A DNA stretch of 64,000 nt, from positions 3,169 to 67,168 of the forward strand of contig JAGAQV010000017.1 of the NCBI GenBank assembly GCA_017622555.1, in the 5' to 3' direction. This document shows positions 4,388 through 59,410 of the stretch, piece after piece. Each line of letters starts with the position of its first letter. Position 1 is the first letter of the stretch. Origin of the DNA: Clostridia bacterium. GTDB taxonomy: Bacteria > Bacillota > Clostridia > Oscillospirales > Acutalibacteraceae. The notes beneath the pieces were generated by a model. That model was not told the DNA's origin, ran no database searches, and saw only the letters and a list, made by a program, of their open reading frames with translations. Made by a program: the position numbers and the translations under genes.

Positions 4388-4393
4388 AATAAG

Positions 4394-4433
4394 CACCCCA
4401 TTTTCAACAGATAATAACTGTGAAAGTGGGGTG
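4394..4433 (+). other. Stem-loop between tatD and the 15-nt repeat
   Basis: caccccattt (4394-4403) pairs with aaagtggggtg (4423-4433) with one bulged G. No clean T-run follows. The 3' arm contains the only SD-like sequence (GGGGTG) for the small ORF at 4440. Confidence 0.4.
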
Positions 4434-4439
4434 TTAAAA

Positions 4440-4574
4440 TTGGATAACAAAAACAGATTTGACCAAAACAAAAATGACCAAAACCGTAACGAGCAAAATC
4501 GTAACGACCAAAATAAAAACAACCAAAACAAAAAAGATCAAAACAAGAACGATCAGAATAAAAACAATCGATAA
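4440..4574 (+). CDS. Candidate 44-aa D/Q/N/K-rich pentapeptide-repeat protein (unannotated, below the ORF-track cutoff)
   Basis: TTG start, translation (M)DNKNRFDQNKNDQNRNEQNRNDQNKNNQNKKDQNKNDQNKNNR*. The TAA stop at 4572-4574 lies immediately before the bidirectional terminator. The two alternative listed frames (4459..4644 +, 4328..4531 -) run through the terminator or are antisense. SD-like GGGGTG lies 6 nt upstream. Confidence 0.3.
   Translation: MDNKNRFDQNKNDQNRNEQNRNDQNKNNQNKKDQNKNDQNKNNR
4461..4565 (+). repeat. Seven tandem copies of a 15-nt unit (consensus GACCAAAACAAAAAC)
   Basis: The units were read directly and are in register: gaccaaaacaaaaat / gaccaaaaccgtaac / gagcaaaatcgtaac / gaccaaaataaaaac / aaccaaaacaaaaaa / gatcaaaacaagaac / gatcagaataaaaac. 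Confidence 0.9.
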
Positions 4575-4602
4575 AAAAAGCCGCCCTTACGGGCGGTTTT
4601 TT
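4575..4602. terminator. Bidirectional intrinsic terminator shared by convergent genes
   Basis: A-run, stem gccgccc/gggcggt with loop ttac, then T-run. It sits between the small + ORF and the stop of the - strand gene at 4601. Confidence 0.8.
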
Positions 4603-25583: not shown

Positions 25584-26225
25584 TTAAAATTCAATATCCA
25601 AAAGCTCGGAAAAATCGTATATATAATAATCAGAAACTGTTTTGATGTCATCAACATAGTCCTTTGAAGAATCATCATAAACACCGCAAACCTTCATACC
25701 CGCTGTTTTTGCGGTTTTGTCAGCGTTATAATTATCATCCAAAAACAAAACCTCATTTACATTTTTGCCTAACTTTTCAGCCGCCATTTTGTAAATTTCA
25801 GGGTTGGCCTTTGTGGTAGCAAAATCATCACACGACCACACGTTATCAAATAAATCATAAAGGTCAAGCCTTTTAAGGCAAGCGTCAAGAGTTATATGGG
25901 GGCTGGCTGTCAAAACATTAAGACTGTTACCCCTGCTTTTAAGCTTTTTAAGCACAGAAATTACGTTGCTTTTTGCGGGAATTTTATTAAAATACCCGTC
26001 AAGCATATATTCCTGCATTAAGCCGATTATTTCTTCCTTTGTAAGCTTAACACCAAGCTTTAAATAATATTCCGCCGTGCCGTTAACACCAAGCGGAGTA
26101 ATAATTTTAACAATATCATCCCCATAGGAAATGTTGTTTTCATCCAAAATACGCAGCATTGCACTTATAAAGGTCGGCATAGAATCAACAAGTGTGCCGT
26201 CAAAATCAAATAAATAAGTTTTCAT
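25584..26225 (-). CDS. HAD-superfamily hydrolase (phosphatase/beta-phosphoglucomutase-like)
   Basis: DFDGTLVDS motif I and a distal LDDN/D motif. GAGGTGGGAG RBS. Confidence 0.8.
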   Translation of the reverse strand: MKTYLFDFDGTLVDSMPTFISAMLRILDENNISYGDDIVKIITPLGVNGTAEYYLKLGVKLTKEEIIGLMQEYMLDGYFNKIPAKSNVISVLKKLKSRGNSLNVLTASPHITLDACLKRLDLYDLFDNVWSCDDFATTKANPEIYKMAAEKLGKNVNEVLFLDDNYNADKTAKTAGMKVCGVYDDSSKDYVDDIKTVSDYYIYDFSELLDIEF

Positions 26226-26242
26226 ACTCCCACCTCAAAGGT

Positions 26243-26271
26243 AGTATAGCATAAAAACGGTGGTAGGACAA
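26243..26271 (-). promoter_or_regulatory. Sigma-A-type promoter for the HAD gene
   Basis: On the minus strand: TTGTCC, 17 nt, TGcTATACT. Confidence 0.5.
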
Positions 26272-26280
26272 GGGGATTTA

Positions 26281-26455
26281 AGTGAAGCGTCGGCAAAGCC
26301 GACGTGATGCATTTGCTACGCAAACGTGATGTTATGTGCTAACGCACAAAGTGATGTAATGTGTTCCTTCCCACGCGCCGAAGGCGTGCATCACGAGCAA
26401 AGCCTGCATCACGCACGAAGTGTGCATCACGTTCCGCACACGCGGAACACATCGT
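26281..26455. repeat. Hairpin-spaced short-repeat array 1: GTGATG x3 (direct) then TGCATCACG x3 (inverted)
   Basis: GTGATG at 26304, 26326 and 26351. TGCATCAC at 26387, 26405 and 26423, with a degenerate 4th copy (acacatcg). Spacer mini-hairpins: cgtcggc/gccgacg, tttgc/gcaaa, tgtgc/gcaca, cgcgcc/ggcgtg, gcac/gtgc, gttccgc/gcggaac. Confidence 0.85.
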
Positions 26456-26460
26456 TTTCA

Positions 26461-26499
26461 AAACAAAAAAGCACTTCTTTCGAAGTGCTTTTTTGTTTT
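26461..26499. terminator. Bidirectional intrinsic terminator
   Basis: A6, stem gcacttc/gaagtgc, T6. Downstream of the GH63-like gene on the minus strand. Confidence 0.8.
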
Positions 26500-26632
26500 G
26501 GGTGTTTTGAACTTAATGACACGAATAAACTGTGCCTGAAAGCTGGGGATTTTTCTATTTGCTCGGCGGTATAATAATAACCGCCAACCCTTGAAAAAGC
26601 TTGATTATTATTTTCATCCTTTTAAATTATAA

Positions 26633-28165
26633 TTAAATTATAAACTTGCTTTCACCTTCGGGTATATCATACGCCTTGCCGTTTACTTCAAGGGTATACG
26701 ACTTATTGGTCACAACGTGACACTCGTTGCCGTCTGCTACAATATCGGTAACAACTTCGCCAAAACGAAGGTTTTTAATGCCAATTTTACCTTCTACGCC
26801 CACAGGTTTTGCCCATTTTATCTTGTTTTTAAAGGCATCAATAGTATGGAAGCCCAACACAAACTCAATGTACACCGCAATGGGACCCAATGCCGACCAA
26901 CCGCAAAAATCGGGGCGCACAAGCCTGCCATCATCTTCTACGCAGGTGGCAGGCTCACACTTTTCGGGAGAATAGCACTCCCAGATAGTATGCGGAGAAA
27001 AATCGGTATAAGTTTTATACATGTGCTCAAGAAGCTTAAACGAAAGGGTGCGCGCATCGCTGTAAAACCCGTAATTTCGAAGCCCCTTAAGGGTAGCGTA
27101 TGCCGTCGGCAACCAAACCGAGCCCCGCCAGTACTTTCCGTTAACGTTATAGTCGTTATCGTTACGTGACAGCGAAACAAACGGCACCTTTCCGCCAAAG
27201 GTTTTGGGGTTGTGTAGCTCGGAAAGTAACGCTTCGGCCTGCTCTTTTGTAGCCACCTCTGCCGTCAGCGCCCAAAACGACGCTATAGTTGCCACCTTGC
27301 AAAACTCGTGAGTGTTGCAGTCAATATCGTAATAAAAACCGTCTTCTTCACACCAATAAAGACGGTTTATAATATCCGCTTTTTTGTTGAATTTTTCGTT
27401 CCATACCGCTTGATTTTGGGTATCGCCCACTATTGCAAAAAGCTTCGCTATCATTTTTGCCGCCATCGCCTGCTGCAGGATGGCATCCACCCACAATAAA
27501 TCAGGGTTATTAGGGCGCGGTTCATAAGCGTGCTCTCCCCTTCTTCCGCGGGGGGTATTATCCATACCTGAGCGACCGCCCTCCCATTTATAACCGTATT
27601 CTTCGGCTATAAGGCAGGTCGGCGCCATAACTCCGGAAATAGTGGTAGGCGTCTTTTGGCTCTCAAACCACTCATAATGCTTTTGCAAAAACTTCTCTTT
27701 ATATAGCAGGTTTTTAATATACTCTTTATCGCCTTTCACTAAAGCGTTTTCGTACTCTGCCCAAGCAAAAAGCGGTGGGTTATCGGCAATGTGTATTTGC
27801 ACTTCAAACGGCTCGCCTACTACACTGCCCGTCCATTCGGGCTCGTTTTCGGTAGGGATTATAATGCCTAATTTTTTCCCGCCGTAAAGTTTTTCATAAA
27901 AGTTTCGAAGCGACTCCACTCCCGGGAAAACGTCACGCGCAAATTTGCAAAAAAGCGACATAAAGCTTGTGTCCCAAATCCAAATTTGGGTTTCGCAAAA
28001 GGCCTCATCCATATAGGGACTTTGGGGCATACCGTCAACTGTCTTAATATGGTCAAAAGCCAACTCCCAAGCCTTATTATAAAATTCGTTATACTGCGGC
28101 ATTTCTTCGCAAACGGGTTGGGGTATATATTCCCGCCAGTTTGCCGCACCAAATTCGTTAGGCAT
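26633..28165 (-). CDS. (alpha/alpha)6-barrel glycoside hydrolase, GH63/MGH1/trehalase-like
   Basis: ~510 aa with IWIWDTSF (WDS/T.F type) and C-terminal FCGWSALGP segments typical of GH63/GH37-like enzymes. ATG 28165 follows an AAGGAAG RBS. Confidence 0.6.
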   Translation of the reverse strand: MPNEFGAANWREYIPQPVCEEMPQYNEFYNKAWELAFDHIKTVDGMPQSPYMDEAFCETQIWIWDTSFMSLFCKFARDVFPGVESLRNFYEKLYGGKKLGIIIPTENEPEWTGSVVGEPFEVQIHIADNPPLFAWAEYENALVKGDKEYIKNLLYKEKFLQKHYEWFESQKTPTTISGVMAPTCLIAEEYGYKWEGGRSGMDNTPRGRRGEHAYEPRPNNPDLLWVDAILQQAMAAKMIAKLFAIVGDTQNQAVWNEKFNKKADIINRLYWCEEDGFYYDIDCNTHEFCKVATIASFWALTAEVATKEQAEALLSELHNPKTFGGKVPFVSLSRNDNDYNVNGKYWRGSVWLPTAYATLKGLRNYGFYSDARTLSFKLLEHMYKTYTDFSPHTIWECYSPEKCEPATCVEDDGRLVRPDFCGWSALGPIAVYIEFVLGFHTIDAFKNKIKWAKPVGVEGKIGIKNLRFGEVVTDIVADGNECHVVTNKSYTLEVNGKAYDIPEGESKFII

Positions 28166-28186
28166 AATTTCCACTTCCTTGTGATG

Positions 28187-28215
28187 ATTTTACTATAAAA
28201 CTTAAATAAAGTCAA
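28187..28215 (-). promoter_or_regulatory. Sigma-A-type promoter for the GH63-like gene
   Basis: On the minus strand: TTGACT, 17 nt, TAAAAT. A further copy of the array-2 motif (plus strand tgtgatgatttta, 28179-28191) overlaps the -10/+1 region. Confidence 0.5.
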
Positions 28216-28382
28216 CGGCTCGCCGTTGTATATCATCAATTCCGCAGGAATTGCATATCATCAAAACTTTAGTTTTGTATATCATCAAGCCGACAGATAT
28301 ACACACTTCGTGTGATGATATACGCCTTCGGCAATGATATACACGACTGCGTCGTGGTGATATACCATTGCTTTCGCAATGG
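28212..28382. repeat. Hairpin-spaced short-repeat array 2: G(T/C)ATATCATCA x3 (direct) then (TGA)TGATATAC x3-4 (inverted)
   Basis: Direct copies at 28228, 28253 and 28277. Inverted copies at 28296 (gatatac), 28313, 28335 and 28358. Six private spacer hairpins: 28213-28228, 28238-28252, 28262-28277, 28324-28332, 28342-28356 and 28365-28382. Central hairpin at 28302-28314. Confidence 0.9.
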
Positions 28383-28417
28383 AAAAAAACACTCGTTCAA
28401 GAGAACGAGTGTTTTTT
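28383..28417. terminator. Bidirectional intrinsic terminator (terminates tRNA-Leu on the minus strand)
   Basis: A7, stem cactcgttc/gaacgagtg, T6. Confidence 0.8.
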
Positions 28418-28503
28418 GGTGCCGATGACCGGACTTGAACCGGTACGATATTGCTACCGAGGGATTTTAAGTCCCTTGTGTCTGCCTATTCCACCACATC
28501 GGC
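28417..28503 (-). tRNA. tRNA-Leu (anticodon UAA), type II with long variable arm, CCA encoded
   Basis: The reverse complement folds by hand. Acceptor stem GCCGATG/CATCGGC, anticodon stem AGGGA/TCCCT with loop CTTAAAA, long variable arm, T-arm CCGGTTCAAGTCCGG, 3' ACCA. Confidence 0.9.
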
Positions 28504-28512
28504 ATATCTAAA

Positions 28513-28541
28513 ATAATATAATATTTTAGATGTTTTGTCAA
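28513..28541 (-). promoter_or_regulatory. Sigma-A promoter for tRNA-Leu
   Basis: On the minus strand: TTGACA, 17 nt, TATTAT, about 9 nt before the mature 5' end. Confidence 0.55.
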
Positions 28542-28565
28542 GTGTTTTTTATGCCTTTTGTTAAA

Positions 28566-55949: not shown

Positions 55950-57485
55950 TTATTTTTCCTCTAAGTTGTTGTACTTTTCATCATAAGATAAAACGAGTGC
56001 AACTTCCTTTTTCTTGATATTACGCTCTATGTAATTCTTTGTAATCTTCACAACTAACGGACAAAGAACAAGTACACCAATAAGGTTGGGAACCATCATA
56101 AGACCATTAAACGTGTCCGAAATATCCCAAGCAAGTGAAGATGTAAGTACTGCACCGAAGATTACTGTTATAACGTGGATAATGCGGAAAATAACGGTTG
56201 TCTTTGCACCAAAGAGATATTCCCACGCCTTGCTTCCGTAATGCGACCAACCAAGAACGGTAGTAAATGCAAACAGGAACATTGCAATGGCAATAAACCT
56301 TTGACCGATGTTACCCCAAGGGAACACTGCATTAAATGCGCCGCCAACCAAGGTTGCATCAGTAAGACCTGCTGCAATTTCACCTGTTTCAATATTGAAC
56401 ACGCCTGTTGTAAGACCGCCGGATGTAAGAACAACAAGTGCAGTCATTGTGCAAACAACCATTGTGTCGGCAAATACTTCGAATATGCCCCACATACCCT
56501 GCTTAACAGGTTCTTTAATGTTAGAGTTTGAATGAACCATAACCGATGAACCAAGACCCGCTTCGTTTGAGAAAACGCCACGCTTAAAGCCGTTTGTCAT
56601 AGCAACGATAACACCACCGATACCACCGCCTACAAATGCCTCAGGCTTGAATGCATTAACAAAGATTGCCTTAAACGCAGGAATAATAGCATCATAGTTT
56701 ACACCGATAATTACAAGTGAGCCCAAAACAAAAAGCACCACCATAAAGGGAACAATTTTTTCAGCAACGGAAGCGATTCTTTTAAGACCGCCCAAAGTGA
56801 TAAGTGCGGTTAAAGCCATAATAGCAACACCGATAAGCACATTGTAAAGTGAAACGTCACCAAAAACGTTAATTGCAGAAAGTGCCTTAACGTCAAATGC
56901 AGCTGCAACGTTAGCAACAATTTTGTTTACCTGACCCATTGAGCCGATACCGAAAGAAGCAAGCATTGTAAAAATACAGAAAAGCACGGCCAAAACTTTA
57001 CCAATCCACTTGCAACCCTTTTTGCCGCCAAGACCGTCACGAAGATAATACATCGCACCGCCCGACCATTCATCATTAACGTTTTTGCGGCGGAAATACA
57101 TACCTAAAACATTTTCGGCATAGTTTGTCATCATACCAAAGAATGCGGCAACCCACATCCAGAAAACTGCACCTGCGCCACCAACACAAATTGCTGCAGC
57201 AACACCGGCAATGTTACCAGTACCAACAGTTGCAGCAAGGGCTGTACACAAGGCCTGGAAGGGCGAAATTGAGCCCTTTTCCTTGCTGTGACTGATAACG
57301 TCCTTTTTGAAAAGACTGCCTATAGTGTTTTTCCACCAGTGCGGAAGATGTGATACCTGGAAAAACTTTGTACAGCAGGTAACTATAATACCTGTACCAA
57401 TGAGTAGCGCCAAACCAAAAATACCCCAAACGACGCTGTTAATTTCGCCGTTTATAGCTGCTACACTTTCTAAAAACTTCTCCAT
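55950..57485 (-). CDS. Alanine/glycine:cation symporter (AGCS family)
   Basis: ISPFQALCTALAATVGTGNIAGVA, SNEAGLGS and ~11 TM helices. Confidence 0.9.
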   Translation of the reverse strand: MEKFLESVAAINGEINSVVWGIFGLALLIGTGIIVTCCTKFFQVSHLPHWWKNTIGSLFKKDVISHSKEKGSISPFQALCTALAATVGTGNIAGVAAAICVGGAGAVFWMWVAAFFGMMTNYAENVLGMYFRRKNVNDEWSGGAMYYLRDGLGGKKGCKWIGKVLAVLFCIFTMLASFGIGSMGQVNKIVANVAAAFDVKALSAINVFGDVSLYNVLIGVAIMALTALITLGGLKRIASVAEKIVPFMVVLFVLGSLVIIGVNYDAIIPAFKAIFVNAFKPEAFVGGGIGGVIVAMTNGFKRGVFSNEAGLGSSVMVHSNSNIKEPVKQGMWGIFEVFADTMVVCTMTALVVLTSGGLTTGVFNIETGEIAAGLTDATLVGGAFNAVFPWGNIGQRFIAIAMFLFAFTTVLGWSHYGSKAWEYLFGAKTTVIFRIIHVITVIFGAVLTSSLAWDISDTFNGLMMVPNLIGVLVLCPLVVKITKNYIERNIKKKEVALVLSYDEKYNNLEEK

Positions 57486-57536: not shown

Positions 57537-57567
57537 AAAAGTACAAGAAAGAAAAAATACAACCTTT

Positions 57568-57700
57568 GTCCTTTTGCCTGAGAGATTAACGGTTAAAAAC
57601 CGCCTTGCCCCTTCGGCACCTGATTTAACAGAATTCTCCAAAGTGCTATCAGTTCACAGTCGAATACCTTCTGCAAACCTCACATAGCTTATTCAGTTCC
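57568..57700 (-). ncRNA. Glycine riboswitch (single clearly conserved aptamer at 57568-57639 plus upstream leader)
   Basis: The minus strand reads GGAGAAUUCUGUUAAAUCAGGUGCCGAAGGGGCAAGGCGGUUUUUAACCGUUAAUCUCUCAGGCAAAAGGAC. This carries the GGAGA, CCGAAGGGGCAA and CUCAGGCAAAAGGAC cores. Confidence 0.85.
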
Positions 57701-59177: not shown

Positions 59178-59209
59178 TTCGTAATTCATAATTTGTAATG
59201 CGTAATTAA
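59175..59209 (+). repeat. Five tandem heptads TAAT(T/G)(C/T)(G/A), left arm of an inverted heptad array
   Basis: TAATTCG TAATTCA TAATTTG TAATGCG TAATTAA. The first TAA is the gdhA stop codon. Confidence 0.85.
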
Positions 59210-59241
59210 CGCACCCAACGATATGTTGGGTGCGTTTTTTT
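59210..59241 (+). terminator. Intrinsic terminator after gdhA
   Basis: 10-bp stem cgcacccaac/gttgggtgcg, T7. Confidence 0.85.
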
Positions 59242-59340
59242 ACACATAATTTCAAATTTGGTTTTATCTATGCCTTCTCCTGCGGGAGAAGACTTTGGTT
59301 TGTACAATTCCGTCAGCCCGATAAACTATAATTCACACAA

Positions 59341-59374
59341 CAATTCCGCATTACGCATTACGAATTACGCATTA
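59341..59374 (+). repeat. Four tandem heptads CG(C/A)ATTA, right arm (reverse complement of the left-arm heptad)
   Basis: (caattc)CGCATTA CGCATTA CGAATTA CGCATTA. The reverse complement reads TAATGCG TAATTCG TAATGCG TAATGCG. Confidence 0.85.
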
Positions 59375-59382
59375 TTTAAAGT

Positions 59383-59410
59383 TCTATTTTGGACAAGTCG
59401 GTCATATCAT
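59383..59410 (+). promoter_or_regulatory. Candidate sporulation-sigma (sigma-E-like) promoter for spoIIIA
   Basis: TCTATTT, 13 nt, CATATCAT. This is a loose match to the B. subtilis sigma-E pattern (-35 ATA-rich, -10 CATAcAnT), and spoIIIA is sigma-E dependent in model organisms. Confidence 0.25.

Follow-up and report, generated by a model that had tools for sequence, protein, structure and literature searches.

Arrays of short k-mers and unique hairpins as an intergenic DNA module family in gut Clostridia

The locus and its two arrays

Within the window, the whole 64-kb stretch of DNA that was analysed, two arrays of short repeats and hairpins stand on either side of a GH63/trehalase-like glycoside hydrolase gene (26633..28174, minus strand). 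The gene downstream of array 1 encodes a HAD-family hydrolase (25584..26225, minus; Pfam HAD_2, E = 5e-25), and a tRNA-Leu(TAA) gene (28417..28503, minus) directly precedes the module of array 2 in the sense direction. An exact-protein look-up of the GH63-like protein of the window returned no record.

Array 1 (26283-26458) is enclosed by a bidirectional intrinsic terminator and a sigma-A type promoter. The terminator (26459..26500) is made of an A-run, perfect 19-bp arms, a GAAA loop on the minus strand and a T-run. Directly 3' of the GH63-like gene, a pre-terminator box (..TTCAGGCACAGTTTATTCGTGTCATTAAGTTCAAAACACC; 26501..26545, minus) is present, which is also found upstream of module terminators in loci L001 (3912), L003 (1683), L023, L048, L075 and L131. 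The promoter of the HAD gene (26243..26271, minus), TTGTCC-17-(TG)cTATACT, is part of a conserved module, ACCGYTTTTATGCTATAMT, common to about 30 loci.

The promoter-proximal arm of array 1 (26283..26358) carries three copies of GTGATG on the plus strand, read as CATCAC on the sense strand (26305-26310, 26327-26332 and 26352-26357), with the three hairpins cgtcggc-aaa-gccgacg (26288-26304), tttgc-tac-gcaaa (26313-26325) and tgtgc-taac-gcaca (26336-26349). It also includes a relic, GTGAAG (26283-26288, plus), whose sense-strand form CTTCAC is the k-mer of the orthologous array in locus L030. The terminator-proximal arm (26369..26458), with its G..A loops on the plus strand, contains three plus-strand copies of TGCATCACG at an exact 18-nt spacing (26387, 26405 and 26423), the central hairpin cgcgcc-gaa-ggcgtg (26375-26389), hairpin 1, gttccgc-acac-gcggaac (26431-26448), and the mini-hairpins cac-gaa-gtg and agc-aaa-gc. 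A centre inverted repeat (26359..26367, ATGTGTTCC on the plus strand) is partnered by a left inverted repeat at the terminator-side end (26444..26452, GGAACACAT on the plus and ATGTGTTCC on the sense strand) that overlaps the 5' arm of hairpin 1, the two being perfectly complementary over 9 bp (pairing P1). All the k-mers and hairpins that a sequence-only reading of this DNA had described for array 1 were found where it had placed them, as were the terminator with its 19-bp arms and the promoter with its upstream TG (TTGTCC-17-TATACT, 26271..26243) between which it had seen the array sandwiched; the GTGAAG relic and pairing P1 are additions to that reading.

Array 2 (28205..28383) likewise has unique hairpins between its k-mer copies, which read on the plus strand as (G)TATATCATCA three times, followed by GATATAC, TGATGATATAC, AATGATATAC and GTGATATAC. 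It is separated from the tRNA-Leu gene by a bidirectional terminator (28384..28417), and its last hairpin is overlapped by the -35 of the promoter of the GH63-like gene, TTGACT-17-TAAAAT (28187..28215, minus). The window's copy of this array is chimeric, its left hairpin and centre being mismatched. Within arrays 1 and 2, no two hairpins are alike.

Such an arrangement, defined as at least three copies each of a 6-mer and of its reverse complement, lying segregated and no closer than 12 nt to one another, occurs twice in the real sequence, as arrays 1 and 2, and in none of 200 first-order Markov simulations of 64 kb; the other intergenic gaps of the window hold no further such array. The absence of the grammar from the simulations and the presence of homologues of both arrays in relatives support the earlier proposal that a grammar common to both arrays argues for a selected structure or a generative mechanism rather than for a single transcription-factor site. 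The region of array 1 folds better than its dinucleotide shuffles on both strands (z = -3.8 and -3.3). Array 1 recurs unchanged in L024 and L025, both independent public assemblies, and is thus not an assembly artefact.

A shared grammar in a mosaic module

Arrays 1 and 2 are members of an undescribed family of intergenic DNA modules of about 180 bp in gut Clostridia, no description of the array element having been found in the literature. The same grammar was found in about 30 more arrays, from related goat-gut and human-gut contigs. The family includes 27 distinct arrays linked to a promoter, whose length of about 170-190 nt is measured from the T-run of the bidirectional terminator to the -35 of the conserved promoter, plus array 2 and the arrays of L018, which have no downstream promoter. 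It is best explained as a dispersed, modular, dyad-symmetric repeat hosted by gut Oscillospirales, Acutalibacteraceae-like bacteria. Sequence homologues of array 2 were identified in seven loci, L003 (950-1200), L023, L050, L074, L079, L119 and L124, and architectural homologues of array 1 in L030, L028 and L150. The earlier statement that the grammar is shared and the primary sequence is not is valid between arrays 1 and 2, but the primary sequence is not free, since each array belongs to a dispersed repeat family and has sequence homologues elsewhere. Comparison of the array 1 module with phage and plasmid sequences by BLAST yielded matches only to 40-nt terminator-like stretches, and a scan of viral contigs for three copies of ATATCACT gave 66 matches that are all, except L154, unrelated tandem repeats. 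Assemblies are often broken at arrays.

In gene orientation, the layout runs from the bidirectional terminator through a first arm, a centre and an inverted arm to the conserved sigma-A promoter, and in promoter-linked arrays the position and orientation of these parts are invariant. The first arm comprises three to four units, each made of a k-mer and a unique short hairpin, and the second arm three to four units with the reverse-complement k-mer; the orientation of the k-mer switches exactly once, at the centre, in all arrays. Each array uses a single k-mer of 6-11 nt, with at least nine k-mers across the family, such as CGTGATGCA, GTATATCATCA and ATATCAC, and several k-mer families can be found in one genome, as in the window, L079, L069 and L044. 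The hairpins, six to eight separate ones per array, are unique in sequence, have perfect stems of 4-7 bp and alternate with the k-mers without linkers. In 25 of 28 arrays, the centre is complementary over at least 9 nt to the terminator-side (left) end, through family-specific sequences, with a median pairing length of 11 vs 5 for non-self pairs. The terminators of the modules, with A6-8/T6-8 runs, are all bidirectional and have loops of 4-7 nt, never triloops. Arrays often directly follow the terminators of tRNA, 5S or cassette genes, and collapsed or partial arrays occur in L001, L003-C, L028 and L128. Two other candidate explanations of the layout were rejected, namely an inversion of one arm (inverton), as 0.87 Mb of loci contain no all-direct arrays, and a helical phasing of the k-mers, whose spacing is irregular (16-25 bp).

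The 28 arrays include 127 distinct hairpins. On the strand where the k-mer reads ..TCA(C/T).., 73 of them have G..A loops and 2 have T..C loops, and the rule applies to each arm (39 and 34 G..A loops; 0 and 2 T..C loops). This favoured strand switches at the centre, so that both arms consist of the same type of unit, strand-inverted in one relative to the other. It diverges at the centre in superfamily I, to which array 1 belongs, and converges in superfamily II, to which array 2 belongs. Most loops are of the C-GNA-G or C-GNNA-G type; triloops account for 68 of the 127, and GTTA, GATA and GACA, which are not of GNRA type, are also among the loops. A 5'C-G3' pair closes every one of the 71 G..A tri- and tetraloops, and these 71 of the 127 distinct hairpins fit the DNA mini-hairpin motif.

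Stems are almost always perfectly Watson-Crick paired and nearly devoid of G.U pairs. In the ATATCAC family, 97.1% of cells are paired and 12 pairs are changed on both sides, a result matched by none of 500 shuffles. Single stem changes give, on the sense strand, T.G three times and C.A once; over all hairpins, imperfect stems are too few for a signal in the wobble-pair strand test. No kissing (loop-loop) complementarity was detected between partner hairpins past the G..A/T..C rule. A strict one-to-one nested pairing of k-mers with their reverse complements (k:k') was rejected, since variant k-mers are mostly uncompensated in the partner arm, with the exception of one conserved G.T in the family of array 2.

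The terminator and the promoter are parts of a larger mosaic module around the array, and arrays, terminators and promoters assort independently of one another. Arrays of the ATATCAC family are 83-98% identical, for 24-68% identity in the upstream 100 nt and 71-83% in the promoters, and the L044a and L044b arrays are 98% identical between flanks of 63% and 77% identity. Near-identical strains, with neighbouring genes 98-99.9% identical, differ exactly at the arrays. L030 shares the window's promoter at 100% and its HAD gene at 98% identity, but its array at only 69%, the k-mer being replaced in every copy except one relic. Between the window and L023, the GH gene is 99.9% identical, and the breakpoints coincide with the centre of array 2 and the next terminator. 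Different genes lie between the tRNA-Leu and HAD genes: the window has the GH63-like gene there, L028 has YcxB and L030 has the gene of an 80-aa membrane protein. The cassette genes among the loci include DMP19-like and SUFU-like immunity-type proteins. As judged from these sequence comparisons, arrays appear to mark sites of gene-cassette swapping.

A proposed DNA structure and competing readings

The loops of the arrays resemble those of DNA mini-hairpins (GCGNAGC / GCGNNAGC), which have the same C-GNA-G and C-GNNA-G loops, GTTA included, on a defined strand. DNA mini-hairpins follow the rule GC-GNA-GC or GC-GNNA-GC, TTC loops do not confer the nuclease resistance seen with G..A loops, and fragments of mini-hairpins are poorly bound by SSB; they occur at single-strand initiation sites and hairpin promoters, in the origins of phages G4, St-1 and alpha3, in ssiA of RSF1010 and in N4 vRNAP promoters (PMC13037366). 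The known ones are single, belong to phage or plasmid origins and serve a known primase or polymerase, whereas the arrays gather six to eight hairpins at many chromosomal intergenic sites. In RSF1010, ssiA and ssiB are on opposite strands.

The reading favoured here, held tentatively, is that the array may be a structured DNA boundary and recombination module. It would act as a folded nucleic acid rather than through a series of binding sites for a transcription factor that recognises double-stranded DNA. Because the G..A loop repertoire matches the mini-hairpin rule and the neighbouring RNA terminators use loops of 4-7 nt, the structure is read as DNA-type, and its active form would most likely be, judging by loop chemistry alone, DNA made single-stranded or extruded. 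Unpairing could occur during replication or through transcription-driven negative supercoiling behind the adjacent promoter, after which the arms would form nuclease-resistant, SSB-excluding mini-hairpins. Two roles are proposed for the array, which would separate units of independent transcription as a structural spacer or boundary and would also be a portable recombination joint for the gain, loss and exchange of promoter-gene-terminator cassettes. Several features count against this reading. A plain cruciform has no need of a strand-specific loop rule, and the use of the same k-mer throughout an array is left unexplained. We also know of no process that would explain the switch of the favoured strand at the centre.

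The fixed polarity of arrays relative to the terminator would also fit read-through RNA, and a structured RNA produced by terminator read-through, or an antisense RNA ending at the bidirectional terminator, is a possible although rather unlikely alternative. Hairpins, left-end/centre helix and k:k' pairing would then build a compact domain insulating the downstream gene by processing, by blocked translation of the read-through RNA or by 3'-end stabilisation. The constant position of arrays, terminators that are perfectly bidirectional despite co-directional flanking genes, the covariation in the hairpins and in the left-end/centre helix, and the excess of T.G over C.A among single changes on the sense strand all fit RNA. 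The sense strand also folds slightly better than the antisense in 17 of 27 arrays, and for 8 of 9 unrelated 'type Y' elements of the same niche the sense fold is likewise the better one, with a sense-strand G.U bias (44 vs 23 pairs). The GGCGGTGA Shine-Dalgarno region has a complement in a conserved CACCGC of the promoter spacer, which only read-through RNA would contain; this complementarity is conserved, with no covariation between the anti-SD and SD sequences (self = non-self). However, the G..A rule applies to opposite strands in the two arms, and one transcript thus carries only half of the favoured loops; moreover, superfamilies I and II are opposite in polarity. The C-GNA-G triloops and the GTTA, GATA and GACA loops are of DNA type and not of GNRA/UUCG type, in contrast to the longer loops of the adjacent RNA terminators, and the scarcity of G.U pairs in the stems also speaks against RNA. 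A strong terminator stands upstream of the array, and no promoter was found for an independent transcript. No Rfam family matches the array: the sole matches of the window above the gathering thresholds are a glycine riboswitch and a tRNA, and permissive searches around array 1 return terminator-like matches of at most 27.6 bits for thresholds of at least 50.

It is somewhat less probable, and on the whole doubtful, that arrays are non-autonomous mobile elements of the MITE or REPIN type, with k-mers as subterminal binding or cleavage sites of a trans-acting transposase or HUH-type enzyme that would work on hairpin DNA in single-stranded form. Arrays would then persist beside terminators as selfish DNA, any boundary function being secondary. 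Near-identical arrays do occur in unrelated flanks, as in L044a and L044b and throughout the ATATCAC family, which is a hallmark of MITEs. As to terminal inverted repeats, superfamily I arrays start and end with inverted k-mers (AGTTATAT...ATATCACT), and inverted repeats of 9-13 bp bracket the terminator-proximal arm. A one-strand motif next to a hairpin is the substrate type of HUH, REP/RAYT and IS200/IS605 enzymes (PMC3333891), and the collapsed or partial arrays, like the frequent assembly breaks, would suit such elements. Nevertheless, the array borders show no target-site duplication, no filled/empty pair of orthologous sites was found, and each of the several k-mer families of a genome would require its own enzyme. 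Among the families listed for the window and 22 loci, in lists of 25 families, no recombinase, transposase, HUH enzyme, regulator or other gene is consistently linked, which also counts against the boundary and recombination reading, and no RAYT (Y1 transposase) appears. The invariant terminator-array-promoter placement and orientation also count against mobility.

Among known repeats, REPs and BIMEs are likewise extragenic, just 3' of genes or terminators, dispersed, and made of short GC-rich palindromes that adjoin a brief conserved motif on one strand, units occurring in either orientation; roles in supercoiling, termination, mRNA stability and recombination have been proposed for them (PMC3333891, PMC3733652, PMC2817692). 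However, REPs are near-identical copies of one imperfect palindrome of 20-40 nt, whereas the hairpin stems of the arrays are all different and perfect. Instead of the GTAG/CGTC tag at the foot of REP palindromes, each array carries its own 6-11-mer, with GTAG only inside some loops, and the orientation of units alternates in BIMEs but switches once, at the centre, in arrays. Modular repeats and MITEs (pneumococcal BOX with its boxA-boxB(n)-boxC structure, Correia, RUP, and the subterminal motifs of eukaryotic Ac/Ds and En/Spm) are also dispersed and modular over about 100-200 bp, highly structured, located beside promoters or terminators, and include short motifs in direct and inverted copies. 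The arrays differ from these by their invariant position and polarity between terminator and promoter and by their unique hairpin spacers, and no sequence similarity, target-site duplication or parent IS was found.

A rather improbable further reading is a new integron-like cassette system in gut Oscillospirales, with arrays as its recombination sites, an unlinked enzyme that would read the fold and k-mers that would be the addresses. A single-stranded array would form a ladder of k:k' duplex boxes and four-way junctions with mini-hairpin side arms, the k-mer would decide which arrays pair and exchange, as orthogonal addresses, and promoter-gene-terminator cassettes, including immunity-type genes, would be shuffled beside tRNA and rRNA genes. 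Like integron attC sites and the repetitive intergenic sequences of Bacteroidales rAID-1 orphan-immunity gene arrays, arrays are structured intergenic elements defined by fold over sequence, at the borders of small, variable accessory genes in the same orientation, with exchange breakpoints inside the element (bioRxiv 10.1101/471110). However, an attC site is a single imperfect hairpin (57-141 nt) that contains R/L boxes and extrahelical bases, is bounded by R''/R' core sites and lies at the 3' end of promoterless cassettes with intI nearby, whereas arrays have six to eight hairpins, belong to cassettes equipped with individual promoters and terminators, and show no linkage to a tyrosine recombinase. 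No integrase was found among the genes neighbouring arrays.

An operator array for a double-strand DNA-binding regulator of the adjacent promoter is very unlikely. The ribbon-helix-helix (RHH) protein omega of pSM19035, an example of such a regulator, binds contiguous WATCACW heptads in direct and inverted copies, with one motif common to all its operators; the k-mers TATCACT, CATCAC and TTTCAC resemble this heptad, and direct and inverted copies adjoin the -35. Nonetheless, membership of the omega/RHH operators was rejected, since different k-mers precede nearly identical promoters and are held 9-18 nt apart by spacers that are always palindromic, with strand-specific loops. The k-mer spacing of 16-25 bp is unphased, the promoter-less L018 arrays would have nothing to regulate downstream, and no regulator gene is linked. 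CRISPR arrays, with constant direct repeats of 23-50 nt in one orientation and unique, non-palindromic spacers, were rejected as well, the repeats here being 6-11 nt long with palindromic spacers and an orientation that inverts at the centre. Finally, a random grouping of short repeats and hairpins within a terminator-rich spacer, for which only the shortness of the motifs speaks, has a negligible probability given the empty simulations and the recurrence of the architecture, with covariation, at about 30 loci.

Meaning for gut Clostridia

If the reading as a structured DNA boundary and recombination module is true, the arrays would represent a previously unnoticed class of structured intergenic DNA in gut Clostridia with a simple grammar, namely a single k-mer for each array, mini-hairpins that are all unique, a change of strand and a long-range pairing that closes the structure. 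This would explain the assembly breaks at array sites in these organisms and offer a natural test bed for the formation and action of mini-hairpins in chromosomes, and the arrays may supply natural terminator-spacer-promoter insulator parts. They would also mark the limits of accessory genes with independent expression as well as the positions at which strains differ, and would help to locate cassette-type variable loci in metagenomes.

Array 1 and its genomic setting

Every element of array 1 (26283-26458) listed in the sequence-only reading was found again by reading positions 25900-26900 and by repeat search. They retrieve three plus-strand GTGATG copies (26305, 26327 and 26352), a hairpin ahead of each (26288-26304, 26313-26325 and 26336-26349), a central hairpin (26375-26389), the hairpin gttccgc-acac-gcggaac (26431-26448) and a perfect bidirectional terminator (26459-26500). 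Three plus-strand copies of TGCATCACG stand at 26387, 26405 and 26423 with an exact 18-nt period, and the minus-strand promoter TTGTCC-17-TGcTATACT lies upstream of the HAD hydrolase gene (25584-26225). Two features were absent from the earlier list, namely a 9-bp perfect complementarity between the array centre (26359-26367) and the terminator-side end (26444-26452), and a relic GTGAAG at 26283-26288.

As the flanking genes all lie on the minus strand, the order in gene orientation is GH63-like gene (26633-28174), conserved box, terminator, array, promoter and HAD gene. Array 2 (28205-28383) has a tRNA-Leu and its terminator on one side and, on the other, TTGACT-17-TAAAAT, the promoter of the GH63-like gene; the two arrays thus flank one single gene. 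The GH63-like protein finds its best relatives, at most 71% identical in a species-representative set, in MAGs of goat-gut and other gut origin that are labelled Acutalibacteraceae, Oscillospiraceae or Clostridia. The window belongs to the core chromosome of a low-GC member of the Clostridia, with genes including rpoD, dnaG, metG and pfl.

Chance, which the earlier reading had set against its own proposal, does not account for the arrangement: a scan for a 6-mer in at least three copies, then at least three reverse-complement copies, gives two places in the window, arrays 1 and 2, and none in 200 Markov simulations. Nothing array-like occurs among the other intergenic gaps of the window. Both strands of the array 1 region fold more stably than shuffled sequence, and identical copies of it in L024 and L025 (among the related gut contigs, numbered with L), which are independent assemblies, exclude an assembly artefact.

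Other features of the window include a glycine riboswitch aptamer (57556-57651, minus; Rfam 61 bits) upstream of the gene at 55950-57485. The A-rich intergenic stretch 4388-4600, with degenerate repeats GACCAAAAC / AACAAAAA and then a terminator (~4578-4600), may be a repetitive coding tail or spacer. In the intergenic region 59178-59388, repeated ATTACG(C/A)AT motifs are inverted at both ends (taatgcgtaatt ... attacgcattacgaattacgcatta), with a terminator-like hairpin between them.

A family of arrays and its grammar

Arrays of the same grammar recur in related loci, which supports the cautious proposal of the sequence-only reading that a shared grammar reflects a selected structure or a generative mechanism. 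L003 carries three consecutive arrays 3' of 5S rRNA and tRNA-Asn, of which one is homologous in sequence to array 2; L018 has two back to back (k-mers ATGAAGC and GTGAAATA), and L001 one short array. The promoter module ACCGYTTTTATGCTATAMT, common to several arrays and directly 3' of them, yielded ~30 distinct arrays when used as a probe against metagenome contigs, many in human-gut assemblies. The k-mer families are GTGATAT / ATATCAC, TGATAT / ATATCA, GTATATCATCA / TGATGATATAC (array 2), GTGAAAT / ATTTCAC, GTATGTAATC / GATTACATAC, AATGATG / CATCAT, GTGAAG / CTTCAC, GTGATG / CATCAC (array 1) and ATGAAGC / GCTTCAT. No published description of the element was found in literature searches.

The full intergenic module runs box, A-run/stem/T-run terminator, array, promoter, 5'UTR, and the array length from terminator T-run to -35 is nearly constant (~170-190 nt). 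The box, of ~40 nt (TTCAGGCACAnTTyATTCGTGTCAyTAAGTTCAAA..), is conserved between the stop codon and terminator of unrelated genes (window 26501-26545, minus; also L001 3912, L003 1683, L023 1813, L048, L075 and L131); other modules have a second type, ..AAAATCnnCGGTTTTT... In the promoter spacer, (T/C)CACCGC stands directly 5' of the -10 (window 26231-26263, minus; also ~25 related loci), complementary to GGCGGTGA at the expected Shine-Dalgarno place of the 5'UTR (CCACC/GGTGG in the window). This pair is conserved without covariation, self and non-self pairings being equal, and only a read-through RNA would contain the (T/C)CACCGC half. A 'type Y' dyad element occupies the same terminator-to-promoter niche at other loci (L054, L101, L132, L116, L050 at 4464, L079 at 4972, L117, L135 and L003 3380-3560); it is a long hairpin whose CT-rich 5' and GA-rich 3' arms surround a small central hairpin.

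Within one array all k-mers are identical and the hairpins unrelated. Hairpins adjoin the k-mers without linkers, and their stems of 4-7 bp are nearly all perfect Watson-Crick. On the A-strand, defined as the strand where the k-mer reads ..TCA(C/T).. or GTATGTAATC, 73 of 127 distinct hairpins have G..A loops and only 2 have T..C loops (39 and 34 versus 0 and 2 by arm). Triloops make up 68 of the 127, and a 5'C-G3' pair closes every one of the 71 G..A tri- and tetraloops; the G..A repertoire comprises GAA, GTA, GCA, GTAA, GTTA, GCAA, GAAA, GATA and GACA. The terminator hairpins of the same modules, which certainly act as RNA, have loops of 4-7 nt (TTTC, GAAA, TTCG) and never triloops. The A-strand changes sides at the array centre, hence the complementarity of k-mer and reverse complement. 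In superfamily I (including array 1) its 5'->3' direction points away from the centre in both arms; in superfamily II (including array 2), of opposite polarity, it points towards the centre. All-direct arrays are absent from the loci searched, and there is thus no sign of arm inversion.

A long-range pair closes the array. The terminator-side end, made up of k0 and the 5' arm of hairpin 1 or of that arm and its loop, has its complement in the centre. The match is perfect over at least 9 nt in 25 of 28 arrays (median 11 nt versus 5 for non-self pairs), with sequences that differ from family to family; the promoter-side end has no such partner. In the ATATCAC family, 97.1% of proposed-pair cells are paired and 12 pairs changed on both sides, values reached by none of 500 shuffles. 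These double changes are mostly replacements of entire hairpins, and in L149 two hairpin sets have recombined.

Modular exchange at the arrays

Each array evolves as a module in its own right. Identity among ATATCAC arrays is 83-98%, against 24-68% for their upstream 100 nt (box and terminator) and 71-83% for their promoters; in the single contig L044, two arrays 98% identical have different flanks. Between L030 and the window, the promoter is 100% and the HAD gene 98% identical (third-position differences 4%), and the array upstream of HAD only 69%, with k-mer GTGAAG / CTTCAC instead of GTGATG / CATCAC. Array 1 of the window keeps one CTTCAC, adjoining the -35. In the syntenic L028 (HAD 91% identical at the protein level), tRNA-Leu is followed by an AATGATG / CATCAT array, which has the hairpin tttgcgtagcaaa in common with array 1, and then by a YcxB gene where the window has GH63; no more than two hairpins precede HAD.

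Comparison of window 26226-28565 with L028 4951-6001 and L030 1-778 shows a GH63-like gene, a YcxB-like gene and an 80-aa membrane protein gene, respectively, between tRNA-Leu and HAD. From these gene swaps and the array and flank comparisons, the tRNA-Leu-to-HAD stretch is a variable locus in close relatives. Exchanges end at arrays: L023 matches the window at 99.9% identity across the GH63-like gene, and the two part at the array 2 centre and within the next terminator. Array 2 of the window is chimeric, since its left hairpin and centre are mismatched. In L023 1840-1950, another terminator and other sequence directly follow the box of the GH63-like gene. Short-read contigs of this species also end at or inside arrays, terminators or tRNA (L023 1-180, the start of L024, the ends of L026 and L027), as expected from dispersed repeats or strain variation.

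Elsewhere, the genes 3' of arrays are small and diverse, many encoding membrane proteins; others are one DMP19-like, one SUFU-like, DUF6487 and YcxB (including L003 1242-1640 and L107 322-931). DMP19-like and SUFU-like proteins are known as immunity families of polymorphic toxin systems. Their presence with small membrane proteins downstream of arrays suggests accessory or immunity cassette islands beside tRNA and 5S genes. The nearest contextual parallel is found in the Bacteroidales rAID-1 orphan-immunity arrays, with 'repetitive intergenic sequences reminiscent of integrons' (bioRxiv 10.1101/471110).

Active form and putative roles

The arrays form a nucleic-acid structure family, selected or process-generated, with strand-specific DNA-type mini-hairpins, a long-range closing pair, a fixed place from terminator to promoter and modular, recombinogenic behaviour. 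Their G..A loops follow the 'mini-hairpin DNA' rule GC-GNA-GC / GC-GNNA-GC; such hairpins, known at phage G4, St-1 and alpha3 origins, ssiA and N4 promoters, give nuclease resistance with G..A loops and not with TTC loops, and their fragments bind SSB poorly (PMC13037366).

With most confidence, the active form would be single-stranded or extruded DNA and not RNA, because the strand that obeys the loop rule differs between the two arms, the loops belong to the C-GNA-G and C-GNNA-G types, the stems lack G.T pairs, and the array, with no promoter of its own, sits past a strong terminator. An RNA form is less likely; it would fit the fixed polarity of arrays relative to the terminators, the bidirectionality of the latter, sense-strand single changes that are T.G in three cases versus C.A in one, and a sense RNA slightly more stable than antisense. 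In the type Y element, sense folds better than antisense in 8 of 9 cases, with 44 versus 23 G.U pairs.

Beyond this DNA form, the array may serve, in decreasing order of confidence, as a boundary or spacer separating transcription units or as a portable joint for the recombination of cassettes. Among the families listed for 22 loci and the window, no recombinase, transposase or regulator is consistently linked. The dispersed copies would fit a MITE-like selfish origin, but no target-site duplication, empty site or enzyme was found.

Several known systems do not fit: the array has no Rfam match; its hairpins all differ, without GTAG or CGTC tag or alternating orientation (REP/BIME); there are many per array, and cassettes have promoters (attC); repeats are far too short and spacers are palindromes (CRISPR); palindromes separate k-mers, which differ ahead of the same promoter (omega-type heptad operators); and phage or plasmid matches are terminator-like 40-mers only. 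One typical ATATCAC-family array occurs in L154 1350-1600 (IMG/VR UViG_3300018495_002688), a 4.2-kb contig classed viral; the k-mer pattern has 65 further viral matches, all of them tandem repeats of unrelated type.

The arrays make up a genuine and conserved family, so far undescribed and open to direct test; these structured intergenic repeats are widespread, their grammar is unusually explicit and their roles are putative.
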